This document shows, piece after piece, positions 6,741 to 46,048 of a stretch of DNA of 64,000 nt. Positions within the stretch are counted from its first letter, which is position 1; every line of letters begins with the position of its first letter. The translations under genes were made by a program, and so were the position numbers. The notes under the pieces were generated by a model. The model ran no database searches and was not told the DNA's origin. It saw only the letters and a program-made list of their open reading frames with translations. Where the stretch lies: the IMG/VR virus record IMGVR_UViG_3300045988_174509. One strand, given 5' to 3'. The DNA is from a virus.

Positions 6741-6838
6741 GATTGACAGAACTTTTGTGTTGTGATAGTATCGCCACCAGAAGGGGCTAGGGGTTTATCT
6801 CCTAGCCCTTCCTCTTTCATGCGAGATACGTTAAACCT

Positions 6839-12246: not shown

Positions 12247-12283
12247 GCCTACCATGCCTCGGTGTGGTAGGCTTTCTTGTATT
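12247..12283 (+). terminator. hairpin (GCCTACCA/TGGTAGGC) followed by TTTCTTGTATT
   Basis: 8-bp stem with a 10-nt loop and a U-rich tail, between 10962..12224 and the giant gene. Confidence 0.4.
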
Positions 12284-12330
12284 CGGAGCGCAACACAGCT
12301 CCAACCTGTTTACATACCTCATATTACATT

Positions 12331-23072: not shown

Positions 23073-23164
23073 ATAAGGTATATACAATGCAGGGAGACCT
23101 AAAGCCTCCCTGATGAAAGAAAAGGTATGAGGGCCGGGAAGAATTTCTTCCTGGCTCTCCCTTT

Positions 23165-26899: not shown

Positions 26900-27540
26900 T
26901 TAATAGGTCTTTGAAAATGAGCGCATAGACGTTCCGCCAGGAACATGGGGATTCTAAAAAGAACCTCCACCAAACCTTTGGTAAATTCCTTAACCCTTTC
27001 TTCCTTTCCTTCCTGGTCATTGCCCTCCGTATCAAACAAATTTTCGACATGGCAGGTATTAACAAAACCAACATGGATCAAATAAATTGAAAGAAGAAGA
27101 GTCATCTTTATCACTTTGGGAGGTATTGAACCCTCCCCTCTACTCATGGTCTGATGAAGTTCAATAAGAGACATAAGCTGGGAAATTTTAGGAAGCCTGA
27201 GAATAAACTCAAGCAAATCTATGCTCGCCATGAAAACTTTTTCCCTCATGTAATCAGGTCCGAGAACCTTGACTTCAAGATCGTATTCCTCAAGGATCGA
27301 ATTCAAAGTAGAACACCAGACTTCCTCTATCTTGATCTGGTTTTCTTTGACCCTTAGATCAAAGTCCTTCTCAGTGCAATTCTCTTTTGACTCCCTTAAA
27401 GATTTTATATCTTTGAAAAACTTTCCGAATCCGGAATTAAAATCTTCCATGCTGAAAGCCAGACCTTTACGGAAGACCAGATTAAGCAGATCATCATTGA
27501 TCTCGCCCCATGTAATAGCAGTTTTTTCTGTTGTATTCAT
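26896..27540 (-). CDS. hypothetical protein
   Basis: 214-aa ORF, ATG start. A possible 31-aa upstream ORF (27642..27547) lies between the conserved motif and this gene. Confidence 0.4.
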   Translation of the reverse strand: MNTTEKTAITWGEINDDLLNLVFRKGLAFSMEDFNSGFGKFFKDIKSLRESKENCTEKDFDLRVKENQIKIEEVWCSTLNSILEEYDLEVKVLGPDYMREKVFMASIDLLEFILRLPKISQLMSLIELHQTMSRGEGSIPPKVIKMTLLLSIYLIHVGFVNTCHVENLFDTEGNDQEGKEERVKEFTKGLVEVLFRIPMFLAERLCAHFQRPIK

Positions 27541-27653
27541 ATTGTACTAATGGTTAATAACGTCAAGGAATCCGGGAATCTGGAATTCACGGAACCAGGA
27601 GGTCAAAAACTCCTTGGCTTGCATTAAGGTAAGTAACTTCATGATGATTTATG

Positions 27654-27666
27654 TTGAGGTTCTAAC
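27654..27666 (-). promoter_or_regulatory. conserved leftward motif instance (GTTAGAACCTCAA)
   Basis: Member of the recurring motif with consensus TTTAGAATCTCAAC (minus-strand sense). It lies 11 nt upstream of a possible 31-aa ORF start at 27642. Confidence 0.4.
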
Positions 27667-27679
27667 AAGTTCTAGTGGT

Positions 27680-28252
27680 TTATCGCAAGAAGTAGATAGT
27701 ACATGGGGAACCCGGAATCAGGGAATCAGGGCGCGTCCAGACCTTCAAAGGCTTTAATACCGAATAGGCGGACCGGACATCGTAAAGCATTTGAGAAAGA
27801 TACAGGAGCACCTTTTCAAAACTGCTCACTTGAGCGGCCCCGATTACAACATTGCGGTTCTGGCTTGAGACTTCAATGAAATAACATCCCCGCTCTTCCA
27901 TCTTGTACACGTCCGCTTTGATCACTTCCTTGAGAGGGAGAGCCAGCTCATTCTTCTGGGGCTTCCCCGCCCATCTAAGGCCAAGGATATGGGAGGCATG
28001 CGGACCAAGAACCTTATCAACCTCCTTCTTTATAAGCTTTGACACTGCATCCATCACGATCGTAAGGTCTTCATCCGTGTCAGATGGGGCCGGAGTAATG
28101 AATTGATCTATGGCAAGATAATTGGTAGGGGCCTGAAAGGTGCCGGAGAAATGAATCCTCGCTTCATATCCCGGCAGGTCTTTGGTGATCTTCTTCCATG
28201 CCCCCAAAGCTGCCCGAAGGAATTTCCAATCGGCATCATTAAATTTAATCAT
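27680..28252 (-). CDS. hypothetical protein
   Basis: 190-aa ORF with ATG start, overlapping the upstream gene in ATGATTAA. Confidence 0.45.
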   Translation of the reverse strand: MIKFNDADWKFLRAALGAWKKITKDLPGYEARIHFSGTFQAPTNYLAIDQFITPAPSDTDEDLTIVMDAVSKLIKKEVDKVLGPHASHILGLRWAGKPQKNELALPLKEVIKADVYKMEERGCYFIEVSSQNRNVVIGAAQVSSFEKVLLYLSQMLYDVRSAYSVLKPLKVWTRPDSLIPGSPCTIYFLR

Positions 28253-28643
28253 GATTTTTAATGGCTGTTTTACGTTGAGATTCTAAAGACAGCATTTCTT
28301 TTACAAGTTGCCAGCAAGAAAACAGGTATTGAACTACCCTGTCCATCATCTTGACTGCTGATAAAAGAAGATGGCTTACAGATACATAAACGAAGAACAC
28401 GGCAAGCACATTTAAAAGCAGGGCCATTAGCTTGTCTTCGTTGATCAGGTGATGAATGCTAAACCCAAAAACACTTCCTTCAATGGCGGCTAGAATCCAG
28501 CACCATGATATCCATAATTCAAGAGTCTTGTGAAGGAAATCTCTGAGTTTCCCTGCCTTCAGGTACAGGCCAAGACAAGCGTTCGCCCGTTCGGGCAATG
28601 GAAATCTCAGAAGATACTTGCTCAGAAGTTTATGCGGTTTCAT
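28245..28643 (-). CDS. hypothetical membrane protein
   Basis: 132 aa with 2-3 hydrophobic helices. Its ATG is directly abutted by the conserved TTTAGAATCTCAAC motif. Confidence 0.4.
   Translation of the reverse strand: MKPHKLLSKYLLRFPLPERANACLGLYLKAGKLRDFLHKTLELWISWCWILAAIEGSVFGFSIHHLINEDKLMALLLNVLAVFFVYVSVSHLLLSAVKMMDRVVQYLFSCWQLVKEMLSLESQRKTAIKNHD
28275..28288 (-). promoter_or_regulatory. conserved leftward motif instance (CTTTAGAATCTCAA)
   Basis: Inside the 3' end of 28245..28643, 22 nt upstream of the ATG of 27680..28252. Confidence 0.4.
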
Positions 28644-28905
28644 GTTGAGATTCTAAAGGGGTTAAGCACACGTGGATATGCCGGGCGGTTCCCGGGGCTT
28701 TGAGCTCCAGCTCAAAGCCCCCTGCCAGTAGCTTGCGGTTTGCTTTCCGCAAGTCGGCAAGAAGGAACCTGCTGTTTTCTACCAGGATTTTTCTTCTCCC
28801 ATCAGAAAAAATTTCAATGGCCCCCATGGTGTGATGCGCCTGAAAGAATTCGTTTAGGATTTCTTTCACTTCCTGTTCTGTCAGTTTATTTGAATGGTAA
28901 AGCAT
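28630..28905 (-). CDS. hypothetical protein
   Basis: 91-aa ORF, ATG start. Confidence 0.35.
   Translation of the reverse strand: MLYHSNKLTEQEVKEILNEFFQAHHTMGAIEIFSDGRRKILVENSRFLLADLRKANRKLLAGGFELELKAPGTARHIHVCLTPLESQHETA
28645..28659 (-). promoter_or_regulatory. conserved leftward motif instance (CCTTTAGAATCTCAA-C-ATG)
   Basis: It abuts the ATG of 28245..28643. Confidence 0.45.
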
Positions 28906-29240
28906 GACTCTTTGATCATCTGTAGGGTTGGAATAATTTACAGGGGCTCATAGTGGTCCCTAAAATAGAACCGCCTGCCCTGAAAGAATCATTCAAAAGA
29001 TTATCCATGATCTGCTGGCTCTTGATAAAATTGATATGACTCCTTATCAACTTTTGGGACTCCATTGAAAGGATTCTTGAGCGTAGAATGTGGAAGTTCC
29101 CGGCTTAAATGGGTTTTTGGTATTCATGATTATGATTTCTTTCTATTTAGTATTGGTTAGCGCGGCGATCTTGCCGCATGTCTTCACTGTAGTAAACTGA
29201 TCTGTTTTTACAAGATATTTTTCAAAAAAATTTTCTTACG

Positions 29241-29255
29241 TTGAGCTTCTATAAG
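29241..29255 (-). promoter_or_regulatory. conserved leftward motif instance (CTTATAGAAGCTCAA)
   Basis: It lies 10 nt after the stop of 29266..30252, and begins a ~330 nt stretch containing only very small ORFs. Confidence 0.35.
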
Positions 29256-29265
29256 TTATGCAATT

Positions 29266-30252
29266 CTATTTCATGTAGAATTTGAATTTTGTCTCACCCT
29301 TTTCAGAATCTTCCGTCACTCGGATGCGCTTCAGAAGGAACGGGAAAACTTCGTTGCACTTGGCTTCCACCTTGTCGAGAATTTCCGTTGGAACTTCAGG
29401 CATTTCAGGACTGGGAGATTTCCAGACAAGATAGCCGTAATATTGTGTGAAGGGAACAAAGGAAGCACTTGCTCCAACTTCCTTTCCGAGCTCCTCGAAT
29501 ATTGCATTCACGTCCTGACTAAGCACAGAATAAAATTCCTGCATTTTTTCAAGGGCGTCATCCAAGCAAAGATTCTCTACTTTATGGAACACGTACTGGG
29601 AAAGGTTCCCCTTCTCATTTACCACAAGATTTTTATTCAGGGATCGCCACACACACACCTTATATTTTCCCGGTGCACTGTCTTCCATGTGCTGAACCGT
29701 AAGGAAGAAGGGAGCGGAAGGAATCCTGATTGCCAAGTCACTTTCCAGAATCCGGGAAGCATGAAGCCTTTCAATGGGAATCCGGGGAACAGAAGTCAGG
29801 GGACCAAGGGAGAGAACAATAGAAAGGTTCCGTTTATAATTGTTAAACTTCTCTCTTGGAGAATTTTCTTGGTAGAACTCTTCTATTTTTTCAATCTCTC
29901 CTTCCCGGGAGAAGAACGCAAGCACTCTTTCATGGTCATTTGTTATTTGAGCATGCGCCTTGCGTGTCTCGAGAGTTGGATTGAAACAATGCGATTCAAC
30001 CCATACCGAATATTCTCTTGGCTTTTTTAGCCGGAGAATGAGACGGATAGCTCTTTCATTAGGTTCAAACAAGCCATAGTAGCGAAGTGACAAGGTTTTC
30101 ATTTCTCCTTCCCGCGGATTTTTCCGCTTAAAGGTGACGCGGAACAACTTTCTAGGATTGGCTTCAGGGATTCCATAAGGCTTTACGCCGTTCTTCTCCC
30201 ATTTAACGCTGAAAGAAATATCCATGCCTTCGAGTAATGATTCAGTTTCCAT
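29266..30252 (-). CDS. hypothetical protein
   Basis: 328-aa ORF, ATG start. Confidence 0.45.
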   Translation of the reverse strand: METESLLEGMDISFSVKWEKNGVKPYGIPEANPRKLFRVTFKRKNPREGEMKTLSLRYYGLFEPNERAIRLILRLKKPREYSVWVESHCFNPTLETRKAHAQITNDHERVLAFFSREGEIEKIEEFYQENSPREKFNNYKRNLSIVLSLGPLTSVPRIPIERLHASRILESDLAIRIPSAPFFLTVQHMEDSAPGKYKVCVWRSLNKNLVVNEKGNLSQYVFHKVENLCLDDALEKMQEFYSVLSQDVNAIFEELGKEVGASASFVPFTQYYGYLVWKSPSPEMPEVPTEILDKVEAKCNEVFPFLLKRIRVTEDSEKGETKFKFYMK

Positions 30253-30292
30253 ATTATTTTTAGGTTCTATATATTAGAGGTTCTTTTATTTA

Positions 30293-30742
30293 TTAGCGTT
30301 CTTCTCTTTCAGTTTTGATCTTTATGCTACCTTCGGAAGGAATTTTAGCGATTCTAAACGCAAAATAATAGCCTTTATCCGCATCATGGTAAGAAAAGTA
30401 ATCCTCCAAGCTACTGGTGAAGACCTTTTCCATATTCTCCGTATGTAGCAGGGGGAGAATGCCCTCTCCTATATAAAACTGAAGAGATTGAACGCCTGCC
30501 ATTAAATCCGTTTCAGCTATCACCTGATCTTCAATCACTTTCCCGGTTCGTTCTTCAACAATTTTCCTTAAATTGCATTCAAGAAGATAGCCAAACCATT
30601 CCAAAGGATCAGTAAAATATTCATCCGTAGCCGTTTCATTGGCAAGCTTCAAGCAATAATCTCTTACATGCTCCGATTTGCTTTGCCTTGCCATGTCAAT
30701 CAGCTTCCTAATGGCGGCAAGCCTGTATTCATTTATGTTCAT
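30293..30742 (-). CDS. hypothetical protein
   Basis: 149-aa ORF with ATG start. It is preceded by the conserved leader and a 24-bp perfect palindrome. Confidence 0.4.
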   Translation of the reverse strand: MNINEYRLAAIRKLIDMARQSKSEHVRDYCLKLANETATDEYFTDPLEWFGYLLECNLRKIVEERTGKVIEDQVIAETDLMAGVQSLQFYIGEGILPLLHTENMEKVFTSSLEDYFSYHDADKGYYFAFRIAKIPSEGSIKIKTEREER

Positions 30743-30778
30743 TATATTTAGTCCCTTTCTACTTGTTTTTTGATTCCG

Positions 30779-30802
30779 GCGGGCAGGAAATTTCCTGCCC
30801 GC
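30779..30802. promoter_or_regulatory. 24-bp perfect palindrome GCGGGCAGGAAATTTCCTGCCCGC in 5' region of 30293..30742
   Basis: Seen directly in the sequence. It is flanked (minus sense) by the conserved leader ATCAAAAAACAAGTAGAAAG. Confidence 0.5.
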
Positions 30803-30804
30803 AT

Positions 30805-30819
30805 AGAGATTCTAAAAGG
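30805..30819 (-). promoter_or_regulatory. conserved leftward motif instance (CCTTTTAGAATCTCT)
   Basis: Immediately followed (minus sense) by the 24-bp palindrome 30779-30802, then the conserved leader and the ATG at 30742. Confidence 0.4.
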
Positions 30820-30856
30820 AAATGCGTGAGAAAATGCACTGAACTTAAAAACTCCT

Positions 30857-31036
30857 TCACAAAAGGCGGGCGTTATGCTCTACATACCATTCGGCAGGAT
30901 AAAGGTCCACACCTCCCCTGACTCCCGGATTCTGTGACTCCCGGAATCCCTGAAGCAGGGATACAAACATTTCTGGATCACTCATTTCGTGAGTCAATAC
31001 GGCGGGCGCGGCTTTTTCTTCTATACTAGTGTTCAT
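30857..31036 (-). CDS. hypothetical small protein
   Basis: The track ORF runs to 31081. The internal ATG 31036 reproduces the leader architecture (GTAGAAAG-N12-ATG) seen upstream of 30293..30742. Confidence 0.3.
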   Translation of the reverse strand: MNTSIEEKAAPAVLTHEMSDPEMFVSLLQGFRESQNPGVRGGVDLYPAEWYVEHNARLL

Positions 31037-31073
31037 TTTATGTCTTCTTTCTACTTGTTTTTTGTTTTTTGAT

Positions 31074-31089
31074 CCGCCCATGGGGGCGG
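31074..31089. promoter_or_regulatory. GC hairpin CCGCCC-ATGG-GGGCGG with the same conserved downstream leader
   Basis: Second copy of the hairpin plus (A)TCAAAAAACAAGTAGAAAG module, upstream of ATG 31036. Confidence 0.45.
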
Positions 31090-31160
31090 GGGCATGAATT
31101 TAGATTAGCTTAGTGATTGTATTGTACAATAAAAATAGTAAAGATTTTTGTCATACACGT

Positions 31161-31622
31161 TTACAAGTCATCGAACATGGCGGAAAGGCAGGCGTAATTC
31201 CTTGAGGGATAAAGGCATTCAAACCCTTGCAAGGGGTAGGTGATTTTGATTCCTTTGCAATATATGTTTGCACTGCACGACGGAATGTTCAGCATGCGCA
31301 ACTCCGAAAGAACGGAATTTTTAGCTTGCCTTGCGGCCATTTGCAAGGATGAATCTGAAAAACTGAAAGGGAACTCCCTGATAAATGACGTTTTGTATCC
31401 GGAGTTCTCCAATTCAATGATGATCACCAGCCGGAATTGCGCGCCTTTGGCGTCATGATACTCTAGCGGAAGAAACTCCCGGCAATTTTGTGTCATGTTC
31501 CACACGTCCAATGCTCCTCTATTCATAAGACTTTGAATCACGGAGGAAGGGGAACAGGAAGCAGGGAAAGACTTGGAACGGTGCTTTTCCTTTGTAATGT
31601 ATGCGTATTCAATAAGTTCCAT
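31161..31622 (-). CDS. hypothetical protein
   Basis: The track start is TTG 31643. The ATG at 31622 is directly abutted by the conserved motif. Confidence 0.4.
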   Translation of the reverse strand: MELIEYAYITKEKHRSKSFPASCSPSSVIQSLMNRGALDVWNMTQNCREFLPLEYHDAKGAQFRLVIIIELENSGYKTSFIREFPFSFSDSSLQMAARQAKNSVLSELRMLNIPSCSANIYCKGIKITYPLQGFECLYPSRNYACLSAMFDDL

Positions 31623-31625
31623 ATA

Positions 31626-31640
31626 TTGAGATTCTATAAT
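31626..31640 (-). promoter_or_regulatory. conserved leftward motif instance (ATTATAGAATCTCAA-TAT-ATG)
   Basis: It abuts ATG 31622 of 31161..31622. Confidence 0.45.
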
Positions 31641-32935
31641 CAAGATTGTTTCTTTGTAGACCGCCCCCTTGTATCAAACGCCGGGATATTTAATTTTCTC
31701 CTTGCTTTTCCGATAACTTGTATTGATTTGCCTGTTTTATTAGCGACTTCTTTATCAGTCATTGTGCCCAGCAGGGATTTAATGTATTCGTCCCCTTCTA
31801 TTGTTTCTTGCAAGCTTTTTTCCTCACGTAATGCCGGAACATTCAATTTCTGTCTAATTCTTCTTACTGCCTCGTCATCAATATTAAATTTTTCGGCTAT
31901 TACTCTATCATAAACTTTCCCAAGCATAGATAAGAGTTTTTTACGTTGGTCCGGTGAAAATCTTTCTAAAATGCTTTTACTGAAAGGCTTAATTTTGTTC
32001 TGTTCTCTAAATTTTTTAATTACATATACGCTGTACCCTGTTTTTTTTGCAATTTTTAAATCTGATACTCTTCCCAATAAATTAAGAATTATATCCTTGT
32101 CCGCATCCTTAATGGGAGCTGGAGCAATTTTTAATTTTCTACGGTTCCGCGCTACAACATTAAGCGATATTCCAAGCCTTTCAGCAATTTCGCTATCAGG
32201 AATTTTCCCAAGCATGGATAGCATTTCTTCGCGTTTCTCTTCGGGGATTTTAGTATCAGATAATGATAGAATGCCCATCTTTTTTCTAATAAGCGCAATT
32301 CCTGCCTTGGAATAACCGAATTTTTTAGCAATTTCATCATCCGGGGTCTTTCCAAGCATGTTAATTAACTCTTCGGGATACTCTTTTTTCTTGTGTGGTT
32401 TATTTGGGTCTCGTGGCTGACGGGGTTTACGCGGCCCCCTATATGACTTAATCCCTAATTTCTTTCTAAGGTAGGCTACTCTGGAATTTGAGTATCCAAA
32501 CTTCTTGGCACACTCCGAGTCAGGAATTTTTCCGAGCACTGCAATAAGCTCTTCATCGTGTTGGATGCGGATTGCTTCAGGGCTGCAATACTTTTTGATA
32601 CCTAATTTATAGCGTTCAGTCTGGACCGTGACGCGCGCTATTCCGAGTAGCTCGGCGATTTCCAGGTCAGGTTTTTTGCCCAACATGGACCGCATTTCTT
32701 CACGCTGTTCGTGAGAAAGAATGCGGTGAAACCTCTTTTCTCGGTATTTTTCATGCAATAACTCCATGAGCAATTGCATGTATTCAGGCGTGGGATGTGG
32801 TTTTTTAGTATTTAGCCACTTCCAAACAGCATCTTCCGTCACCCGCATCATCTGCGCGGCCCTTTTTACAGCTTGGGTAGGACTTGGGAGATTGTTGGCC
32901 GTTTGAAGCCAGTCGATAAATTCTTGTGCGGTCAT
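31640..32935 (-). CDS. tandem helix-turn-helix repeat DNA-binding protein (8 sigma-70 region 4/LuxR-like HTH modules)
   Basis: 431 aa. About 8 repeats of ~36-40 aa fit the pattern LxxLGKxPDxEIAxKxGxSxxxVxxxRxKLGI. Confidence 0.55.
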   Translation of the reverse strand: MTAQEFIDWLQTANNLPSPTQAVKRAAQMMRVTEDAVWKWLNTKKPHPTPEYMQLLMELLHEKYREKRFHRILSHEQREEMRSMLGKKPDLEIAELLGIARVTVQTERYKLGIKKYCSPEAIRIQHDEELIAVLGKIPDSECAKKFGYSNSRVAYLRKKLGIKSYRGPRKPRQPRDPNKPHKKKEYPEELINMLGKTPDDEIAKKFGYSKAGIALIRKKMGILSLSDTKIPEEKREEMLSMLGKIPDSEIAERLGISLNVVARNRRKLKIAPAPIKDADKDIILNLLGRVSDLKIAKKTGYSVYVIKKFREQNKIKPFSKSILERFSPDQRKKLLSMLGKVYDRVIAEKFNIDDEAVRRIRQKLNVPALREEKSLQETIEGDEYIKSLLGTMTDKEVANKTGKSIQVIGKARRKLNIPAFDTRGRSTKKQS

Positions 32936-32947
32936 GGTGAGAAAGGA

Positions 32948-32966
32948 GGGGCGGCAATGCCGCCCC
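32948..32966. promoter_or_regulatory. GC-rich 9-bp stem/3-nt loop hairpin between the acidic gene and the multi-HTH gene
   Basis: ggggcggca-atg-ccgcccc, 12 nt upstream of ATG 32935 on the minus strand. Confidence 0.4.
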
Positions 32967-32976
32967 TGGGGGTTAT

Positions 32977-33303
32977 TTAGTGAGCTTCAACGCGGGAAGC
33001 GTCCTGCGTCCAGTTGAGGTTTTCTCCTTCAATTTCTTCGCCCGTCATTTGTTCAAAGACCATGTAGATTTCAACCTTGTTCCCTTCTGCATCATAGCCG
33101 GGAGCAGACCATTCTTCCATATAACTGCCGTCTTCGTATTTGTCCGCATAGGAGCCAGGGAAAACCCTGTTGGTGTATTCCATCTGGCGCGCTGCATAGT
33201 AGGTCTTGCCTTCGAACTTGTAGCTGCCAAATTCACGTTCAAGAGCGGTCAGGTTGATTTCTTCTCCGTCTTCCGTGGTGATGATTTTGTTATCGTTCAT
33301 CAT
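32977..33303 (-). CDS. highly acidic small protein (first gene of leftward block)
   Basis: 108 aa with ~24 Asp/Glu against ~9 Lys/Arg. It is the first ORF after the origin-like region. Confidence 0.4.
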   Translation of the reverse strand: MMNDNKIITTEDGEEINLTALEREFGSYKFEGKTYYAARQMEYTNRVFPGSYADKYEDGSYMEEWSAPGYDAEGNKVEIYMVFEQMTGEEIEGENLNWTQDASRVEAH

Positions 33304-33339
33304 TTTTGTAATTCCTTTCTTTCAGGTTTTATTCTTGGC

Positions 33340-33356
33340 AGGGCGTTGCGCCCTTG
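33340..33356. promoter_or_regulatory. 6-bp stem/3-nt loop hairpin AGGGCG-TTG-CGCCCT upstream of first leftward gene
   Basis: It lies ~40 nt upstream of ATG 33303 and is followed (minus sense) by GAAAGAAAGG-N13-ATG. Confidence 0.35.
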
Positions 33357-34377
33357 CATGATTTTTTGATAGCATTACGGAGGGTTCCGTTCAACCGATT
33401 TTTTGCAGGGAGCCGGCAAGTGATTTAAAATGAAAGGATTATAATTGTGTCATACAAGGTGTAAAAAAGTGTGAAAAGGTGCTTGCAATGTAAAAATCCG
33501 GCATTTGCGGCACAAAAATCCAGCGTCAAAATCAGGCATGGGGGAGTATCGTAAAAAGTACAATAAGCCATGAAGCCGGGAAACCCGGGTTCCGGGTTCC
33601 GGGTTTGGAGGATTAGGCAATAATTGAGGCAGGTGCAAAAGCAGGAATGATTCATAAAATTTTATGGCTGGTGTCCCATATTTGAGCCGGATTCCATAAA
33701 ATTTTATGGAACTTTGGACAGTTTCAGGGTGTCAGGTATAAAATTTTGTAAAAGCAGGGAGAGGCGGGTGCAGGGCGTCAGGGTAACTTAGAATCAGGGA
33801 GTCAGGGGATCAGTTTGGAGGATTAGGCAAGAATTTGAGAAGAAAGGAAGGCCCTTCTTTTCTTCTCATATCATCAACGTATCATGATATGTTGATATGT
33901 TATGATTCACAAGCAAGCCCGCAATTTATACAGGCGTATAAATATGCACCCCTGAACCCCTGATTCCGCCCTTCCCTGCACCCCGCTTCACACGTCAAAA
34001 AATACAATAACCCCCCTATTTCCGGCTATGGAAAAATTCAAACGTAACATAATGGATTGAATCTTAACGTCTAGCACGTTCATACTTCGCATAATATGTG
34101 TAATGCAAAATCGGAAGCACGATTCAGGCATAACAAGAAAATACATAAGAAGTTATGAAGGAAATTACCCTGAAATTGGAAGCCGATTTCCGCCATACGG
34201 GAGGTTTACAGGGCCAGGGGTTCAAGGTTAGAGTGGCTCAAAGGTTCAGGGTTCGAGCAACTCTAACCCGGAATCAGGAAACATACCACCACGGTTGAGG
34301 GGGCTCACGGGTTCAGCGAGTGGAGGTATAAATCTTTGGGTCGGGAATGCCCTGGAGGAACCATTTTTGGAGAAAGG

Positions 34378-34510
34378 GGGATGTATGGACCTAGAAGGCG
34401 GGTTTACCCCCAGTTGGGTACTCTGTACCGGACCTACCCCAAAACACAGTTTTAGGCGACCACCCTACATGAAAAAACCGTATTCTGGCATGAGCATGGT
34501 TCCCAGGCAT
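34378..34510. repeat. ~130-bp direct repeat, copy 1
   Basis: The last ~85 bp are near-identical to 34666-34750. Each copy contains AAAACaCAGTTTT and begins with ATGGACCTAGAAGGCGGGTTTACCC. Confidence 0.6.
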
Positions 34511-34617
34511 GCGTAAAGGGCGGATACCACCACGGGGGAAGGGGTGGAACTTGGGAACCGGAAAGGGCGGGATCAGGGGTTCAGGGGGTCGGAAAAAATC
34601 GGTGAAAACGGAAAAAT

Positions 34618-34750
34618 GGGAGGTATGGACCTAGAAGGCGGGTTTACCCTCTTTCCGCTACAGAGTACTGGACCGACCCCAAAACGCAGTTTTAGGCGAC
34701 CACCCTACATGAAAAAACCGTATTCTGGCATGAGCATGGTTCCCAGGCAT
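34618..34750. repeat. ~130-bp direct repeat, copy 2
   Basis: As copy 1. The middle ~30 bp segment is replaced while the flanks are identical. Confidence 0.6.
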
Positions 34751-34839
34751 CCTCGCGTGCGCATGCGCGTAGGCATGGGCATGGGCTGGCAGGGGTCGGC
34801 ATACATGTCGGAAGAAAGGTCGGAAAAAGGGTCGGCATG

Positions 34840-34930
34840 AGCGGGGCTCGCCTACGCATACGCGTACGTACGCGCACATGGCCCGCGTCACCCGCGCATG
34901 TGTGGGCATGTGCAGGCGTATGCGCTCGCC
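34840..34930. repeat. GC-rich alternating purine/pyrimidine tract (CGCATACGCGTACGTACGCGCACATG...)
   Basis: Seen directly in the sequence: CG/CA/TG dinucleotide alternation with imperfect inverted repeats. It immediately precedes the AT-rich block. Confidence 0.5.
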
Positions 34931-34959
34931 CGCCTCAGCGCGCCCAGGAAACTTTTATA

Positions 34960-35050
34960 ATTCAATATTATAATAAAACCCATATATATATATATAGTAT
35001 TTTTTAACTTTTTTATTTTTAGGGTTCTTGTATTGATTTTTAACGAGTTA
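34960..35050. repeat. AT-rich block with (AT)7 at 34982-34996 (DNA-unwinding-element-like)
   Basis: Seen directly in the sequence. Confidence 0.5.
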
Positions 35051-35152
35051 TGAAGACGGATTTTGTGAAGTGAAAAGTCAGAGCCCCTTTTCACATGCCT
35101 TGACAAAAATGGAAATATGTATGAATTTGGTCTTTTTTATACTTTAGAAATT

Positions 35153-35168
35153 AGAATGATTCTAAAAA
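35153..35168 (-). promoter_or_regulatory. degenerate motif instance (GTTTTTAGAATCATTC) pointing leftward into the origin-like region
   Basis: No convincing downstream ORF. It would direct transcription into the AT-rich/(AT)7 tract. Confidence 0.25.
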
Positions 35169-35187
35169 CTTTTACATACTTTTTTTA

Positions 35188-35324
35188 TCGACATTTTTAC
35201 GACATTTTTACGACGTTTTTTTGACCCCATTTTTGACCCCATTTTTGACCCCATTTTTGACCCCATTTTTGACCCCATTTTTGACCCCATTTTTGACCCC
35301 ATTTTTGACCCCATTTTTGACCCC
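35188..35324. repeat. phased A/T-tract tandem repeats: CGACATTTTTA x3 (11 bp) then TTGACCCCATTT x8.7 (12 bp)
   Basis: Perfect copies counted in sequence from 35221. The antisense 82-aa MGSK-repeat ORF is an artefact of this array. Confidence 0.7.
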
Positions 35325-35388
35325 CTGAATCCGTGATTCCGCCCTCCCGTTCCACCTCCATTTTTGACCCCCTGAATCCGTGATTCCG
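35314..35388. repeat. direct repeat TTTGACCCCCTGAATCCGTGATTCCG x2
   Basis: Two copies ~48 bp apart, just upstream of the primase-helicase start. Confidence 0.5.
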
Positions 35389-35483
35389 GATACCTCCGGA
35401 CCCCCGTCACCGGAAACCCCTTTTTATTTTTCTCTTGACAGGATTTCCGTCCGGATTATCCTGGCTCCACATTAATACATCCC

Positions 35484-38400
35484 ATGACACCCCTATATAT
35501 CGACGACATTCATATCTCTATTGCCGCCCCATCCGCCCCGCAGTGGCTCACTGCCATGGACGTAAACAAAAGGTTCTACCATGTCGGTCATTGCAATAAT
35601 GCCTTTAATGCGGGGCTGAAGGCTATTGCCCTTGGCTGGATGAAATTTGAGGACGCAGAAGGCTTTCCGCTCACTCCCGATTTGCGCAGATGCGGCTATA
35701 TGTGCGACGCCTATGCAATGGACAAGGGCGTGAAACTTCCCGCCCTCCTGCCTGATGCCTATATAGATAGTATTTCCAAATGGCGGGAAATCTCCCCCGA
35801 GGCGGGCATCCCCAAATCCGTGCTCCCAGCCTTCGTGCCGTCAGTCTCCTTCAATTACAAGTTCATTCGCAAATGGCAGAAGGACAACCAGGATGACCGG
35901 AAGAAGTACCTGAGCGCGAAAGCCTTGGCCGGACGCGATCCCCGGGCGTGGAGCCATACGGGCCTGTTCTGCATTGACATTGACGCCGGGCACGACGGAA
36001 ACCCTGAAGCCCCTGACGCCCTGTACGCCCAGGCCCATGCCAATGGCGCCTTCTCCCTGATGCCCGGATTCCTTTTTTCCTTTGCATCCCCGAATCAGGG
36101 AATCAAGCTGATGTTTAAAGTGGACCCGGTTCTGCTCGCGCTTCTCAATACCCCGGAAGGATGCGGAGATGCGGACCTGGAATCCCCGGAAGTATCGGGG
36201 GAAGCCCTCGCCCGGGTGCAGTCTTTGCGCGAGAAGAACCACGCCATATGCTTTTACGCTATCGCCGCGATGGTTTCCCGCCATACCGGGCTTGCCGTGG
36301 ATTTATCCTGCTCCGATCCCTGCCGCCTCCAGTTCATGTTCCGGGCCCATGCCTCCCGGTATGAGCTCAATCCCTGTCTCCTTGATTCCGAAGTCCCGGA
36401 TTCCCTGCTTCCTGGGTTCAGCATCGACGGAGCCGATGCATGGAGGGAGTATGAGGAGACAGCCGCCCGCCGCGGAGCCGGAGGCTCCGCTGTGCAACCC
36501 CGGAATTTTGAGCCCGGAAAAGACAATAAGCCCGACAGTATTTTGAGGTTTGCCGACTGGCTCAAATCCAGGGGGTGGCTGAAGGAAGCCCAGCACGTTT
36601 TGGACATGACTCCCGGACCCCGGGGCTATTATTCGTTCTGCCTCCAGTGCCGGGATGTAAGCAGTACGCCTTCCGGACCTCGTGACTTGCTCCTGTGGCT
36701 TGACAGGGATTCCCCCGGGAGGTTCGGCTTCAAGTGCCTGCATGAATCCTGCCAGAGCCGGGCCAAGGTCAAGTACCCGTTCTGGTATCTGGCAAAGCTC
36801 TACCATGAGGAGCAGGAGGCGTTGAAGATTGCCCATGAGGCATCCAATTCCTATCAGGTGCCTGAGCCCATCCGCAAGTTCATCCGCACCAGAAGCGAGC
36901 TCTCCGAGCACAAGATCATCATTGGGAACATCGGGATGGTCCAGTCCTCCTTCAAGACTCCCGATGCCCTGCCGAACCTGTTCGAGTGGGATGAGAAGAC
37001 CGGAGCCCTGCTTACTACGGCCCTGAATGTGTCGGGCTATGTGCGCCACTGCATGGGATTGTATCCCGTATATAACAAGGACCTGTGCTGTAACGAGTTC
37101 ATTTCTCCGGATACGGGCATGTGCTTCCCGTTTGACGCGGTGCGCAAGGCCGTCCTCGGCTACTTCATGACCCGGTGCAACAAGGACGTGTCCAAGCAGT
37201 TTCTTTTTACCTCCCTGCATGAGGCCCAGGGCCTTTCCTATTCGCCGCTGTTTGCGCTGGGGTACTGGGAGGAGTGGGACGGAGTTCCCCGGGTGGACCA
37301 GTATATCGACCTGCTGGAGTGGGACCCGGCCCACCAGCCGCCTAAAATCTTAAAGGAGGATGGCACGCCCATGTCGGGGCAGGAGTGGAAGCGGCATGCC
37401 CTGCGCTCCTGGCTGGTGAATTGCTGGGAGCGCACCGTCTGCTCGGTGATCGGCTCGGACAAGGTGCCGACCTTCGGTGGCCGCCCCTCGCACCTGATGC
37501 CGGAAAACAAGATGATCATCCTCTGCTCGGAGACCCAGGGGGTGGGCAAGACCCAGTGGGTGAAGGGGCTGGTGGGGAGCAAGGCCCAGGAGTCGCTGGT
37601 CATTGCCGATAAGCTGGAGCAGAGCAAGGACCATGACAAGATTTCGGCCATCAAGCCGATCTTTTTCCTTGACGAGATGGAGAAGACTACGAAGAACGAG
37701 GAGATGAACTCGCATCTCAAGATGGTGCTGACCCGGAGCCACATTGACATTCGTGATCCCTATGAGAAGGACATCATGCACAGGAAGGTGGTGACTTCCT
37801 TCATCGGGGCGACCAACGAGCCAAAGCCTTTGAGTGATGCCGATGGAAGCCGCAGGCTTGTGTTGCTTTATGTGAGGAGGCCCGCCGATAAGATGGGCAG
37901 TGTAGGCAATTGCCCCGAGCATGTGAAGGAGATGCAGTCGCTCAATGTCGCCCAGTTCTGGGCCGAGATCAAGTACCTGTCCGAAACGGCCAAGCCCGGG
38001 GAGTATGCGCTGACGCCCCAGGAGACCAATCTTGTGCATTACAACCAGACCACGGCTTTGGAGAACGGGGAGTTCAACCACCTCGTATCCTACCTCCGCT
38101 TCATTCCCTCAAACTACCCGGCGGCGGACGGGAAACAGCTCCGCAAGATGATCAACGGGGCGTACAACGATCCGGCCAATATCATCAATTCGGTCCGCAG
38201 GTATCTCGGGGAGCGGGAGATCAAGGTCTCCTGGCGCGGGAGCAAGCAGTTCCGCCAGCATCTTCTGGCCCAGGTGCCCGAGGGGTGCTCTCCCACCTAC
38301 TATACAGGCAAGCGCGGGTCTCCCCGTGTCGCCCTGTACCCGGTTATGCTTGAATCCGAGTTCGAGCTTCTGGCCTCCGATACAGCCAGGAAATCCTGGG

Positions 38401-38570
38401 CTCGGGACAACCCGGAGGAGGCGGCGAAGTATTACAAGCGGATCAAGTTCGGCCTGGGAGATGGTTCCCTGGTTGACGTGGACCCGGCGCAGGCCGAGAA
38501 GCTGGACATCTACAAGCCCTACTATGACCAGTATATGGAGGACAGTCTGGAAAATGAGGACGAGGAGTAA
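35484..38570 (+). CDS. primase-helicase (AEP-type primase/polymerase fused to D5-like SF3 helicase)
   Basis: N-terminal LFCIDIDAGHDG (AEP hhhDhD motif), Cys/His cluster CLQCRD...CLHESC, Walker A ETQGVGKT and Walker B-like VTSFIGATNE. 1,028 aa. Confidence 0.7.
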   Translation: MTPLYIDDIHISIAAPSAPQWLTAMDVNKRFYHVGHCNNAFNAGLKAIALGWMKFEDAEGFPLTPDLRRCGYMCDAYAMDKGVKLPALLPDAYIDSISKWREISPEAGIPKSVLPAFVPSVSFNYKFIRKWQKDNQDDRKKYLSAKALAGRDPRAWSHTGLFCIDIDAGHDGNPEAPDALYAQAHANGAFSLMPGFLFSFASPNQGIKLMFKVDPVLLALLNTPEGCGDADLESPEVSGEALARVQSLREKNHAICFYAIAAMVSRHTGLAVDLSCSDPCRLQFMFRAHASRYELNPCLLDSEVPDSLLPGFSIDGADAWREYEETAARRGAGGSAVQPRNFEPGKDNKPDSILRFADWLKSRGWLKEAQHVLDMTPGPRGYYSFCLQCRDVSSTPSGPRDLLLWLDRDSPGRFGFKCLHESCQSRAKVKYPFWYLAKLYHEEQEALKIAHEASNSYQVPEPIRKFIRTRSELSEHKIIIGNIGMVQSSFKTPDALPNLFEWDEKTGALLTTALNVSGYVRHCMGLYPVYNKDLCCNEFISPDTGMCFPFDAVRKAVLGYFMTRCNKDVSKQFLFTSLHEAQGLSYSPLFALGYWEEWDGVPRVDQYIDLLEWDPAHQPPKILKEDGTPMSGQEWKRHALRSWLVNCWERTVCSVIGSDKVPTFGGRPSHLMPENKMIILCSETQGVGKTQWVKGLVGSKAQESLVIADKLEQSKDHDKISAIKPIFFLDEMEKTTKNEEMNSHLKMVLTRSHIDIRDPYEKDIMHRKVVTSFIGATNEPKPLSDADGSRRLVLLYVRRPADKMGSVGNCPEHVKEMQSLNVAQFWAEIKYLSETAKPGEYALTPQETNLVHYNQTTALENGEFNHLVSYLRFIPSNYPAADGKQLRKMINGAYNDPANIINSVRRYLGEREIKVSWRGSKQFRQHLLAQVPEGCSPTYYTGKRGSPRVALYPVMLESEFELLASDTARKSWARDNPEEAAKYYKRIKFGLGDGSLVDVDPAQAEKLDIYKPYYDQYMEDSLENEDEE

Positions 38571-38578
38571 AAAATCTC

Positions 38579-38606
38579 TTGACATTTTCCCCTGATATTG
38601 TAGGAT
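38579..38606 (+). promoter_or_regulatory. sigma70-like promoter TTGACA-N16-TAGGAT
   Basis: It starts 9 nt after the primase-helicase stop. It drives a short ORF-less transcript that ends at terminator 38666-38706. Confidence 0.4.
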
Positions 38607-39918: not shown

Positions 39919-40484
39919 CCCGGGACCCGGAAAGAGTCCAGCAGGCCAGCCTTCTGCTGAGGGAGATTCTTAAAAGGAAGCATGTCAAGATTGAAGAAGT
40001 ACCAATTTATTACGGAGAGGAGTCAAGATTTGAAATAAGGTTCGGCTGGTTTTATTCCAGGAGAATTCTCTTGAGGATAGAGAAGCGTCGGGGAACCGAA
40101 GATGGTCCCGATCTGGATCGTATCTATGCGGGAGAACCAAATGACCTTGATGTTTTTATGTACGTTGGCTGGCGGGAGGCTTTTTATTGCCGGGTTCCTA
40201 ATTTTTTGCTCCAGCGTTTCCTGAATAGGATGGCCTATGAGGCAGATAAAGGATTGAAAAAAGAGGACGAAAAAGAGATAAAGGTCGCTAAAAGGGTTTT
40301 TGGAATTTATTCCAGGAAGCTTCGCTTGCCTGATTTGTATTTTGCAGAGAACACAGAGGCCGCATGGGATTTTATTTTTAAAAATAATTACGATACCAGC
40401 AAGCTTTCCAAATGGGATATAAAAAAGATGCACCAGGAATATCTTGAATTGAAAAAATTCAAAAAAGAACATACTAATGACTAA
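39891..40484 (+). CDS. hypothetical protein
   Basis: 197-aa ORF, ATG start. It ends 8 nt into the polymerase gene. Confidence 0.4.
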   Translation: MHLEHDNSIARDPERVQQASLLLREILKRKHVKIEEVPIYYGEESRFEIRFGWFYSRRILLRIEKRRGTEDGPDLDRIYAGEPNDLDVFMYVGWREAFYCRVPNFLLQRFLNRMAYEADKGLKKEDEKEIKVAKRVFGIYSRKLRLPDLYFAENTEAAWDFIFKNNYDTSKLSKWDIKKMHQEYLELKKFKKEHTND

Positions 40485-42339
40485 TACAAGAGAGACGATT
40501 GAGACAATTCCGGGTCTCTGCATGGAGATTGTGGAAGATTGTCACGAGATTGATGGAGACGTTATTTTCTGGGACACGGAAACTTTCTACAGCAAGGAAT
40601 ATTCCGTCGAGAATACCGATGCCCGGACTTACTGTGCGGACCCCCGCGGCTATTGCTACATTATTTCCGTGACGGATGGCAAGCGGGTCTGGTCCGGAAC
40701 TCCGAAGGATTTTGACTGGGAGATTGTCCGGGGCAAGAAGCTCTGCGCCTTCAACCAGAACTTCGACGCCGCTGTTTATTACTTCATGCTGGGAGCCCCC
40801 GGGGATTCTCCCATGAGTGGCTGGCTCTGCGCCAAGGCCGCCTGCAATTACCTGGGACTTTACGGTTCCCTGGCCGAGCTCATTGAGAAATGCTTTGGAG
40901 TTCAGGTCAGCAAGGATGTCCGTGATGCCGCCGAGGGCGTGGACTTCAGCAAGCTGGACAGCATTCCGGTTGACATGATCCGCTATGTGTGCATGGACTC
41001 CTATTATGGCTGGGCTCTGTGGGACCGTTTCGGCAAGTATTGGCCGGAGGACGAGAGGGAGCTCTGGTGGGCTACGGTAGAGATGTCCTGGAAGGGCTCT
41101 CCTACCTCCCTGGAGTTCCTGGACAAGGGGCTTGCGGTGATGGAGAAGGCGCGTGATGCCTACAAGGAATCCATCCCGCTGGAGGAGACTCTTTCCCTTC
41201 CCCAGCTTAAAGCCAAGTGCGTGGAAGCTGGAGTCCCTGCTCCTGAGTCCACGGCCAAGACCAGCAAGGTCTGGCAGGATTGGCTGGATGAATATGGAGA
41301 GCAGGTTCCCTGGGTCCGCAATATTGCCCGGTACCGGAGTGCCAACCGTCTCCTTTCCCAGTTCCATCAGATTCGCCCCCGGGTGTACATGAGCGACGAA
41401 GGGTTTGAGCGGCTTCCGGCTACACTCACCTATTGTGGGGCCACTACGGGACGTTGGACGAGCGGTGGGGATCATTTCAATGTCCAGCAGTTGAACCGCA
41501 ATGAGGTTGAAGGGTTTGACATTCGCGGCATCATCCGGGCCCCGGAAGGTTATTCCCTGGTGTTCTGTGACTGGGCCCAGATTGAGGCGCGCATCATTGC
41601 GTGGTATGTGGGCCAGGACGAGATTCTGGTCCCACTTCGTGAGGGGGCTTCCGACCTCTACGCCCTGTATGCGAAAGCCTGGAACCTTCTCCCCCAGGAG
41701 GTGGAGCACTTTGAAGAGTGGTGCAAGCTTCCCGGCAATGATCCCATGCTCCGGCAAGTGGTGAAGGCTGGTGCCCTGGCTTGCGGATTCGGCCAGCGGG
41801 CTGCGGGGCTCCATGCTAAAAATCCCCATATGACCATGGAGCAGTGTGAGTTTATTGTGGATACATACCATCAGAAGAATCCCAAGGTGCTGGCTTGGTG
41901 GGAAACCCTGAAGGAAAAAATCCGCAGGGGGGCCCTCTCTTCCAGCAAGTCCTTCTCCATTCAGCTTCCCTCGGGGCGCACCCTGTATTACCGGGGCCTG
42001 TTCAAAAAGCTCTGCCAGTCCTCCAAGGGCAAGCCCTACTGGGCCTGGGCCTACAAGCCAAACAAGTTTTCTACCCGGGTTGTCAATGTCTCCCTGCTGT
42101 CAAACAATGTCGTCCAGGGCATTGCCCGCGACCTGATGAAGAATACGGTGCTTGAAATGCGCAGGCAGGGATGCCCTGCATTCGTGATCATCCATGACGA
42201 AGGCGGCTTCCTGGTGAAGGACGAAGACCTGGATCACATGGTCCCCCTGATTAAGGGAGTCATGGAATCCGTGCCTCCGTGGGCCGAAGGTCTCCCTCTT
42301 CTGGCTGAACCTAAAGTGCTCAAAGTGTACAAGAAATGA
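40477..42339 (+). CDS. DNA polymerase, family A, with 3'-5' exonuclease domain
   Basis: Exo I FWDTET, Exo II NQNFDAAVY, Exo III YVCMDSYY. Pol motif A FCDWAQIEARIIAW, motif B RQVVKAGALACGFGQ, motif C VIIHDEGGF. Confidence 0.8.
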   Translation: MTNTRETIETIPGLCMEIVEDCHEIDGDVIFWDTETFYSKEYSVENTDARTYCADPRGYCYIISVTDGKRVWSGTPKDFDWEIVRGKKLCAFNQNFDAAVYYFMLGAPGDSPMSGWLCAKAACNYLGLYGSLAELIEKCFGVQVSKDVRDAAEGVDFSKLDSIPVDMIRYVCMDSYYGWALWDRFGKYWPEDERELWWATVEMSWKGSPTSLEFLDKGLAVMEKARDAYKESIPLEETLSLPQLKAKCVEAGVPAPESTAKTSKVWQDWLDEYGEQVPWVRNIARYRSANRLLSQFHQIRPRVYMSDEGFERLPATLTYCGATTGRWTSGGDHFNVQQLNRNEVEGFDIRGIIRAPEGYSLVFCDWAQIEARIIAWYVGQDEILVPLREGASDLYALYAKAWNLLPQEVEHFEEWCKLPGNDPMLRQVVKAGALACGFGQRAAGLHAKNPHMTMEQCEFIVDTYHQKNPKVLAWWETLKEKIRRGALSSSKSFSIQLPSGRTLYYRGLFKKLCQSSKGKPYWAWAYKPNKFSTRVVNVSLLSNNVVQGIARDLMKNTVLEMRRQGCPAFVIIHDEGGFLVKDEDLDHMVPLIKGVMESVPPWAEGLPLLAEPKVLKVYKK

Positions 42340-45982: not shown

Positions 45983-46011
45983 TTGACGGTATAAAACATA
46001 AACGATATAGT
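45983..46011 (+). promoter_or_regulatory. sigma70-like promoter TTGACG-N17-TATAGT
   Basis: Upstream of the RuvC-like gene. Its -10 box sits at the foot of hairpin 46014-46048. Confidence 0.4.
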
Positions 46012-46013
46012 GT

Positions 46014-46048
46014 GGGAGTCCTCTTTGGGTGAGAGGACTCCCTTTTTT
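46014..46048 (+). terminator. terminator-like hairpin ending 1 nt before the RuvC-like start codon
   Basis: gggagtcctc-tttgggt-gagaggactccc, then tttttt, then ATG. It overlaps a TTGACG-N17-TATAGT promoter. Confidence 0.5.

Follow-up and report, generated by a model that had tools for sequence, protein, structure and literature searches.

Repeated intergenic cassettes with a structurally conserved stem-loop precede leftward genes of a phage with relatives in human-gut metagenomes

The 64,000-nucleotide stretch of IMG/VR virus record IMGVR_UViG_3300045988_174509 analyzed here (the window) is the genome, or nearly the whole genome, of an uncultured human-gut phage, in which two gene arms diverge from a non-coding region, and the leftward arm, running from 33303 down to 23165, holds a repeated intergenic hairpin cassette. 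Each cassette is ~75-110 bp long and consists, in order, of a promoter-like signal, a GC-rich stem-loop, and an A-rich leader with the motif TAGAAAG 11-14 nucleotides (nt) before an ATG. The window has four copies, all within 29.1-33.4 kb, and a relative can have as many as six, in a comparison set of 12 related gut-metagenome contigs (designated by L numbers). The hairpin is conserved as structure, not as sequence; the flanks around it are conserved, and insertions and deletions between close relatives are bounded by the cassettes. They are read here, with what is judged an even chance of being right, as early-gene expression cassettes in which a transcribed stem-loop, at or near the mRNA 5' end or intercistronic, would stabilize or insulate an open A-rich start region, and which would also serve as recombination linkers; what this reading predicts is where transcripts start, that stability or translation is affected, and that the cluster is expressed early. 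An earlier note on this DNA had described a duplicated module of palindrome or hairpin plus leader before two of the genes. That observation is confirmed and its interpretation partly supported, and to it are added the promoter-like hexamers, a fourth cassette (29128-29213), and the finding that genes are gained and lost with breakpoints at the cassettes.

Two types of cassette can be distinguished (coordinates are collected in Table 1). In type I, which comprises cassettes C, D and B of the window, an A/T-rich tract is followed by a -35-like hexamer, 16-17 nt, a -10-like hexamer, the GC hairpin, the A-rich leader, TAGAAAG and ATG, with a gap of 8-12 nt between the -10 and the hairpin (7-12 nt in relatives). 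In type II, represented in the window by cassette E, the sequence TAGAATCyCTA is followed by a strong 9-14 bp hairpin, (CC)GGAA(A)TCAAAAA and TAGAAAG, with no conserved -35, and the TAG of TAGAATCyCTA is the stop codon of the upstream gene in those relatives that have this gene intact. Type-II copies stand before other genes in some relatives (F in L072 and L074, and one in L076 and L078), and a fifth family, cassette A, occurs in relatives only (L068, L072, L074). Counted from the -10 to the stem, the distance in the window is 8 nt for B, and for D when its outer pairs are included, 12 nt for C and 6 nt for E, with 4-12 nt in relatives. The open reading frame (ORF) upstream of cassette E in the window ends ~54 nt before its hairpin; the type-II hairpins of the relatives begin 8-9 nt past the stop codon. 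A covariance model (R1) built from 8 type-II copies has exactly one match in the window, cassette E, at 79.6 bits, and the type-II model also found a copy on which it had not been trained (L078:1842-1915, 64 bits).

The earlier description holds at the level of the letters, with small corrections. The perfect 24-bp palindrome upstream of ATG 30742 is present, as is the CCGCCC/GGGCGG hairpin of cassette C, the loop of which reads ccat on the sense strand, the ATGG given for it being the plus-strand reading. Palindrome and leader follow one another in the order described, with four bases (CGGA) separating the palindrome from ATCAAAAAAC. The leader shared by the two genes is the 20-mer ATCAAAAAACAAGTAGAAAG, exact at 30755-30774 and with 1 mismatch at 31047-31066, where the copy in cassette C has an additional AAAAAC; no third match was found in the 64 kb at <=3 mismatches, and none in 100 dinucleotide shuffles. 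The distance to the start codon, put earlier at 13 nt, is 10 nt when counted from ...AAAGGG; the 12 nt also given earlier, counted from GTAGAAAG, is correct. The two further hairpins that had been mentioned are also present: that before the acidic first gene has its core at 33340-33354 and belongs to cassette D, and that before the gene for a protein with multiple helix-turn-helix (HTH) units, at 32947-32967, lies outside the leader-cassette class and may be a weak attenuator.

Evidence for the stem-loop as a conserved structure comes from pairing that persists as the sequence is replaced. When the 8 type-II copies are aligned, standard pairs occupy 97.8% of the cells and both sides change in 8 of the 12 pairs. 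Compensatory cells number 19, where shuffles give 7.1 +/- 1.8, and controls in which the partner is shifted by 1-3 columns pair at only 24-64%, with 0-1 covarying pairs. At the site before the 149-residue (149-aa) gene, the stem is GCGGGCAGGA-aatt in the window, L068 and L080, ATGTGCGCGGAG-aatcatc in L069, ATGCGCGCGGAG-gatgatt in L083, and GGCACGCGGAAA-gttat in L072, although the flanking protein is 89-97% identical between the phages (74% for the L072 protein). Point compensations are found as well, from T-A to C-G between L069 and L083 and from A-T to G-C between L072-F and L074-F. Type-I cassettes behave similarly: the stems of cassette C across relatives include CCGCCC/GGGCGG, C9-atat-G9, C10-tataa-G5 and others, and those of cassette D are AGGGCG/CGCCCT, AGGCA/TGCCT, and AGGCG/TGCCT with a G.U pair. 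In nearly every copy the flanks and TAGAAAG are unchanged.

This turnover bears directly on the suggestion of the earlier note that the palindromes might be operator sites, for example for a dimeric phage or host regulator such as the 431-aa multi-HTH protein. The absence of any spacer in the perfect palindrome of cassette E, together with the gene for a many-HTH protein nearby, would suit such a role; however, no palindrome sequence is common to two sites, orthologous sites are wholly different between relatives (one of which has no palindrome), and the other copies have non-palindromic loops of 3-7 nt. In addition, L069, L072 and L080 keep their hairpins without the multi-HTH gene, which was seen in the window and L068 only. 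An operator function is accordingly regarded as highly improbable.

RNA folding gives a consistent arrangement in which every predicted fold shows the hairpin, then an unpaired leader, TAGAAAG and the AUG. Folding energies are -8 to -30 kcal/mol, with z-scores against shuffles of -2.7 to -4.0 in the window and to -6.5 in relatives; for three type-I copies of lower stability, all in relatives, the values barely depart from those of shuffles (z -0.8 to -1.6). The cassette E palindrome folds at -21.4 kcal/mol (z = -3.99) and the cassette C hairpin at -12.4 kcal/mol (z = -2.66). No U-run follows the cassette hairpins in either orientation; a plus-strand T-run precedes the hairpin, the tails are AUCAAAAAAC, CGGAAUCAAAAAAC and GCCAAGAAUAAAA, and a terminator scan flagged none of them on the minus strand. 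The claim that none of the hairpins has a U-run thus applies to the three with an A-rich leader, and needs qualification for the hairpin at 32947, the tail of which, CCUUUCUCACC, is weakly U-rich. A canonical intrinsic terminator was ruled out by the missing U-run. Because the phage has textbook hairpin plus U-run terminators elsewhere (23129-23159, 46014-46042, and near 38.67, 38.85, 39.13, 55.95 and 57.40 kb), the U-less cassette hairpins form a class apart from these.

A looser form of the same idea would have the hairpins act as U-less terminators or attenuators that damp read-through between early-gene cassettes, with the leader belonging to the next gene. The intergenic position of the hairpins and the short distance of the relatives' type-II copies from the preceding stop codon are compatible with this, and a promoter overlaps a terminator hairpin at 45985-46048 in the same phage. 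There is also a precedent in the promoter-early stem-loop (PeSL) cassettes of T4-type phages, the stem-loops of which lowered lacZ read-through to the same extent as did the rrnB T1 terminator (PMC2839356). The RNA that follows the hairpins, however, reads AUCAAAAAAC or GGAAAUCAAAAA, and neither strand has a U-run, whereas the evident terminators of this phage have long U-tracts, and the cassette D hairpin stands ahead of the arm's first gene, a place at which only transcripts from the upstream promoter-like site P1, 70 nt away, would be available to stop. Termination as the main function is considered unlikely. The overlapping site at 45985-46048 (+) has the order TTGACG, 17 nt, TATAGT, 3 nt, a 10-bp GC hairpin, and a TTTTTT tail leading into the ATG at 46049; starts at this site would yield transcripts without part of the stem, so that the hairpin would stop only upstream transcripts.

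Promoter-like signals are the second component of the type-I cassettes. Across relatives, TTGAAC and TGcTATCAA of cassette D are invariant around a 17-nt spacer that occurs as three unrelated sequences, the L080 spacer being a close variant of that in the window; as far as alignment can tell, invariant hexamers around a changing spacer are the pattern expected of a real promoter. Eight distinct relative sequences of cassette C (the ninth row of the alignment is a different cassette, A) have an invariant TAATCT -10, a -35 of TTGTAC or TTGCAC, and a hairpin that varies, and in cassettes B and C alike the -10 hexamers are invariant and the -35 hexamers vary at one position. P1, a stronger site that is conserved in relatives, lies ~45 nt upstream of cassette D. 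Cassettes A, B and D have an upstream AAAAAATC-type tract in common with a promoter-like TTGACA-16-TAGGAT site at 38579 on the other arm. Intergenic sites of the form TTGACA, 16-17 nt, TAnnnT are found on that arm at 35435, 38579, 38708, 38896, 45985 and 55921, several of them preceded by A/T-rich tracts, with one more at 6743 on the same strand, and on the basis of the other-arm sites the phage seems to rely on a host polymerase of the sigma-70 type. Since genes lack a Shine-Dalgarno (SD) sequence, a Bacteroidota-type promoter (TAnnTTTG) was weighed and rejected, as the intergenic sites show the full TTGACA, 16-17 nt, TAnnnT. Also rejected was TAGAAT as a sigma-70 -10 of type II, for there is no conserved -35 and the final T varies (TAGAAC, TAGAAG); the type-II cassettes are probably not promoters, and their hairpins are probably intercistronic. 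Small inverted repeats of 5, 4 and 6 bp in the cassette D spacers of the window (33372-33388), L069 and L072, with none in L080, recall the PeSL stem-loops that lie between -35 and -10, and are not significant (p = 0.04-0.17).

The earlier note had also proposed hairpin-type promoters, which would place the cassettes with the DNA-hairpin promoters of phages N4 and LUZ7, used by a virion RNA polymerase (vRNAP), for which an ORF of 3,389 aa would be the candidate, with transcription starting in the ATCAAAAA tract. An ORF of ~3,400 aa at the end of the structural arm is indeed close in size to the N4 vRNAP (3,500 aa), conserved flanks surround a variable stem as they do in N4 (PMC4496689), and the middle promoters of LUZ7 are hairpins rich in GC whose stems have 6 bp or more (PMC9163698). 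Yet the loops here range over 3-7 nt and the stems over 5-14 bp with no conserved loop or stem bases, one lineage has lost the hairpin and kept both gene and flanks, and the genome layout is unlike that of N4. The giant ORF (12277-22500, +; 3,389-3,407 aa) has no PHROG, Pfam or PDB match and, at the sequence level at which the comparison was made, no similarity to the N4 vRNAP (best BLASTP E-value 2.1); it contains instead an HExxH motif (FIHEAVHLVD), along with long predicted coiled-coil-like stretches. Promoters of the N4/LUZ7 kind are thus as improbable an explanation as operators.

The third component, the leader, contains the best-conserved element of the cassette. TAGAAAG is kept in nearly every copy in all relatives, the exceptions being the F copies with TAGAAAA and one copy with TAGAGAG. 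The proposal that it marks a shared ribosome-binding region is reasonable in view of this conservation and of its position 11-14 nt before the ATG, but a role through SD pairing is doubtful. A 16S rRNA tail of CUUUCUA could pair with TAGAAAG, and the A-rich, structure-free leader may be as important as the motif itself. Judged from the genes of the phage and from its intergenic promoter-like sites, the host is SD-poor yet sigma-70-like.

Of the functions that the earlier note had listed, a stability or translation element in the 5' untranslated region gives the best fit, in view of the structure-only conservation, the predicted unpaired leader, and the position of the hairpin 8-12 nt after a conserved -10-like hexamer in three of the four cassettes, the mechanism being a proposal. 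With a start ~7 nt after the -10, an unpaired 5' tail of 0-6 nt is predicted before the hairpin, and the type-I hairpin would lie within a few nt of the 5' end of a host-polymerase transcript. Once transcribed, the stem-loop would cap the RNA, either at its 5' terminus or between cistrons, and block end-dependent decay; by confining GC-rich pairing locally it would keep the A-rich start region open for ribosomes. Flanks and leaders, being common to the cassettes, could additionally provide homology patches for the swap, gain and loss of ORFan genes.

Several observations weigh against this proposal. The type-I hexamers match the E. coli consensus at only 6-8 of 12 positions, TATCAA is without the usual final T, and the promoter scan that found P1 did not flag these hexamers. 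Placement of the hairpin at +1 depends on the rule of thumb for the distance of the start from the -10, and type II, besides its want of a conserved -35, includes one copy with TAGAAC. Some attenuator activity of the hairpins is possible, by analogy, since PeSL stem-loops terminate transcription. As for translation, an SD-like word at -20 to -5 is found in just 9 of 63 window genes, under the 21% random background, and the host is for this reason probably not dependent on SD pairing; four of the nine are cassette genes, and with most genes lacking an SD the role of TAGAAAG is uncertain. The hairpin itself can be lost: L074 has a clean deletion of it between GGAAA repeats, with gene and flanks kept; L073 and L075-L078 have neither spacer nor hairpin before the same 149-aa gene, and keep the leader; and the 5-bp stem of cassette B is broken without compensation in L072, L074/L082 and L080. 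Moreover, the stems are nearly all perfect Watson-Crick, with just two G.U pairs, and a 7-nt loop is reverse-complemented between L069:3801-3831 (aatcatc) and L083:1007-1037 (gatgatt), where the stems are one compensatory pair apart. The perfect stems, the inverted loop and the complete exchange of stems might be due to palindrome dynamics in the DNA and not to selection on RNA. The L069/L083 loop difference looks like a small inversion via the hairpin arms.

Carried further, this argument leads to hairpins with no regulatory function, which would be unstable GC-rich palindromes that arise and are exchanged by events in the DNA, for instance template switching or recombination of cassette arms, leaving only promoter, leader and TAGAAAG functional. 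The near absence of G.U pairs, the inverted loop, the complete replacement of stems between phages with 90-97% identity in the flanking genes, the clean deletion in L074, and the leader that persists without a hairpin in L073 and L075-L078 would all be accommodated. What it does not readily account for is the presence of a GC-rich hairpin at the same position in five cassette families and in all lineages with the intergenic spacer, in a gene cluster of 41-44% GC, or the point compensatory changes, which are hard to obtain without pairing selection or arm-to-arm conversion. A hairpin without function is on balance considered distinctly unlikely. Given its loss in L074, its absence from L073 and L075-L078, and the decay of the cassette B stem, the hairpin is better described as useful than as essential, with DNA-level palindrome dynamics adding to its turnover.

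The cassettes are also joints of gene gain and loss: where close relatives differ by an indel or a replacement, the breakpoints fall in the cassettes. L068 is without the 132-aa gene of the window (28245-28643), the deletion falling exactly between two copies of the motif TTTAGAATCTCAAC, and has an extra cassette A with a gene fragment not present in the window. In L075-L078 an added gene of 156-173 aa begins after a type-II cassette, reaches as far as the TAGAAAG belonging to the 149-aa gene, and bears the leader of cassette C. The slot after cassette D is occupied by the acidic and multi-HTH genes in the window, by a 183-aa gene in L069, by four other genes in L072, and by nothing in L080. 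Paralogous cassettes in one genome are closer to each other than orthologues, as seen for E and F in L072. To judge from the truncated reading frames, the early region of the window phage is degraded: the 59-codon ORF after cassette C is what is left of a 196-aa gene, still whole in relatives, and has suffered two internal deletions, one between GCATTTCC repeats, the ORF after cassette B (29047-29127, -) is cut to 26 codons from 213-231 aa in relatives, and at 27547-27642 (-) a gene of ~200 aa is cut to 31 aa. Annotation of the window is helped by recognizing that several of its small ORFs are remnants of longer genes.

The TTTAGAATCTCAAC motif has 8 copies at <=3 mismatches, all on the minus strand and inside the leftward cluster 26945-31638. 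Most are 0-40 nt before a start codon or cassette, and one is ~45 nt before the stop of its gene; the motif often includes the upstream stop codon TAG and is kept in relatives. Its sixth base varies (T, C or G), so that it is not a sigma-70 -10, and it may serve in RNA processing, as a promoter specific to the phage, or as a joint for recombination. A broader alternative would interpret the cassettes as signals for a phage-specific activity, not for host machinery, with the TAGAAnCTCAAC junction motif (with or without the hairpin) as the recognition site and with hairpins actively renewed by palindrome-generating recombination that drives cassette mobility. The activity could be a sequence-specific endoribonuclease, cleaving the early polycistronic RNA so that each cistron becomes a unit capped by a hairpin, or it could be a non-sigma-70 promoter class read by an unrecognized phage polymerase or factor, possibly within the 3,389-aa protein. 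This combination is thought very unlikely, and the cassette is regarded as a neat instance of a design already known rather than as a novel type of element.

The genome in which the cassettes occur codes for a family A DNA polymerase (40477-42339), a VapE/D5-like primase-helicase (35484-38570), a helicase, an exonuclease, and a large terminase. The GC content of the leftward arm is 41-44%, versus 52-60% in the main structural-gene block, and nearly all genes of this arm are without a Pfam or PHROG match, the arm also encoding the one 431-aa repeated-HTH protein; by position and gene content the arm would be early. The 431-aa protein (31640-32935, -) has ~8 tandem HTH units with weak matches to HTH_23 and Sigma70_r4_2, and 5 of the units are still repeated at the DNA level as 70-nt stretches. 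All close relatives come from human-gut metagenomes. Among GenBank phages, BLAST gave no match for the cassette region or for 24 kb of the other arm, and a DNA polymerase scan of a genome collection gave no match. When IMG/VR was scanned for the exact 17-mer leader, 67 loci matched, with the module only in two related contigs and the others being chance A-rich matches, and a degenerate type-II pattern scan of IMG/VR returned at least 120 matches, of which none of the 120 listed had a GC hairpin, these also being matches by chance. A metagenome scan found no lineages beyond the same two. No gathering-score match to Rfam 15 was present in the window, a permissive scan of 28.9-33.7 kb gave only a chance miRNA match (E = 0.39), and a tRNA search of the window found none.

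The divergent arms are separated by a 2-kb non-coding region (33400-35480), probably a genome end, origin or control region, because the L069 contig starts there. It contains nine exact 12-mers TTTTTGACCCCA at 35218-35325 with an adjoining array of 11-12-mers (35182-35220), two 138-nt direct repeats 240 nt apart (34373-34510, 34613-34750), CATAAAATTTTATGG palindromes at 33653-33667 and 33695-33709 with a third variant near 33738, and an (AT)7 run. At 63690-64000 (+), a long in-frame nucleotide repeat of GGTGTACGGGAATGCCAAGGTGTCCGGTGATGCCGAG-like units continues past the window end and probably encodes a repetitive beta-helix-type fiber protein.

Table 1. Positions of cassette elements and associated features in the window
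Feature	Position	Strand	Description
Cassette E (type II)	30743-30816	-	TTTAGAATCTCTAT, hairpin, CGGA-ATCAAAAAAC leader, GTAGAAAGGG, 10 nt, ATG
Palindrome of cassette E	30779-30802	-	24 nt, GCGGGCAGGAAA/TTTCCTGCCCGC, 100% complementary, no spacer; folds as 10-bp stem with 4-nt loop
TAGAAAG of cassette E	30755-30761	-	Ends 12 nt before ATG; ribosome-binding-like
149-aa gene	30293-30742	-	Downstream of cassette E
Cassette C (type I)	31037-31129	-	TTGTAC (31124-31129), 16-nt spacer, TAATCT (31102-31107), 12 nt, hairpin, A-rich leader, TAGAAAG (31047-31053); ATG at 31036
Hairpin of cassette C	31074-31089	-	CCGCCC-ccat-GGGCGG
59-codon ORF	30857-31036	-	After cassette C
Cassette D (type I)	33304-33394	-	TTGAAC (33389-33394), 17-nt spacer, TGc-TATCAA (33366-33371), 8 nt, hairpin, leader with AGAAAGG (33314-33320); ATG at 33303
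Hairpin of cassette D	33338-33357	-	Bulged; core 33340-33354
First leftward gene	32977-33303	-	Acidic, 108 aa; behind cassette D
P1	33438-33465	-	Upstream tandem promoter-like site; TTTACA, 16 nt, TATAAT; 11/12 consensus matches
Cassette B (type I)	29128-29213	-	TTGTAA (29208-29213), 16 nt, TACAGT (29186-29191), 8 nt, weak hairpin, TAGAAAG (29139-29145); ATG at 29127
Hairpin of cassette B	29162-29177	-	GCGGC-aagatc-GCCGC
GC hairpin	32947-32967	-	Between acidic 108-aa gene and multi-HTH gene; no A-rich leader; tail CCUUUCUCACC, then AUG
TTTAGAATCTCAAC copies	31625-31638, 30803-30816, 30345-30358, 29240-29253, 28644-28657, 28274-28287, 27653-27666, 26945-26958	-	

If the proposed function is correct, promoter/stem-loop cassettes that express and shuffle ORFans would not be peculiar to T4-type phages, and would be either convergent or widespread in unrelated gut phages. 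The natural variants would further provide ready controls for the role of a leader-proximal hairpin in an SD-poor host, in that the same gene is preceded in different phages by four different hairpins, by an inverted loop, by a deleted hairpin, and by no spacer.

Among known systems, the E. coli ompA 5' untranslated region, the B. subtilis aprE leader and the 5' stabilizer of phage SP82 are examples of 5'-terminal stem-loops that stabilize mRNA. The cassettes resemble these in having a stable hairpin a few nt from the predicted 5' end, followed by an unstructured translation initiation region, and differ in that the 5' ends are predicted and the type-II copies are probably internal to polycistronic RNA. 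REP and other intercistronic hairpins, as in E. coli malE-malF, provide a second parallel, with GC-rich palindromes a few nt past the stop codon within an operon that have no U-run and are variable and dispensable; REPs, however, are chromosomal with a family consensus, whereas here only the flanks are common and the elements are tied to the downstream leader. The "moron" cassettes of lambdoid phages are similar in being accessory genes with their own promoter and hairpin, but have no shared flanking linkers and usually end in canonical terminators. With N4 and LUZ7 the cassettes have in common short GC-containing hairpins upstream of early genes and conserved flanks. The early promoters of these phages need a conserved 3-nt loop, and in N4 also a 5-7 bp stem (PMC4496689; PMC9163698), whereas the loop here is neither conserved nor 3 nt long, the stems are 5-14 bp, and no vRNAP homologue is detectable by sequence; in N4, moreover, the sense sequence after the hairpin is T-rich, and here it is A-rich.

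By analogy, the nearest known counterparts are the PeSL cassettes of T4-type phages, which consist of a sigma-70 promoter, an AT-rich upstream region, a stem-loop that is often poly-G/poly-C, and an SD with ATG (Arbiol et al. 2010, PMC2839356), and which flank ORFans and mediate shuffling in hyperplastic regions (PMC2839356; Comeau et al. 2014, PMC4122927). The present cassettes are likewise repeated intergenic units of ~100 bp with, in type I, an A/T tract and a candidate sigma-70-like -35/-10, and with a GC stem-loop (often with C/G runs) and a ribosome-binding motif with ATG, they are clustered in a variable ORFan region, and they form breakpoints between close relatives. The differences are several: this phage is not T4-like, having a genome of ~64-67 kb and a family A DNA polymerase; its stem-loop comes after the -10 and would thus be transcribed, whereas the PeSL stem-loops lie mostly between -35 and -10 or over the -10; there is no U- or T-rich tail; and a second cassette type lacks the -35. 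The promoter, terminator and mini-circle activities of PeSLs are experimental, whereas the present cassettes, known from sequence alone, share with PeSLs the joining of a promoter-like signal, a stem-loop and a translation start in one repeated and apparently exchangeable unit.

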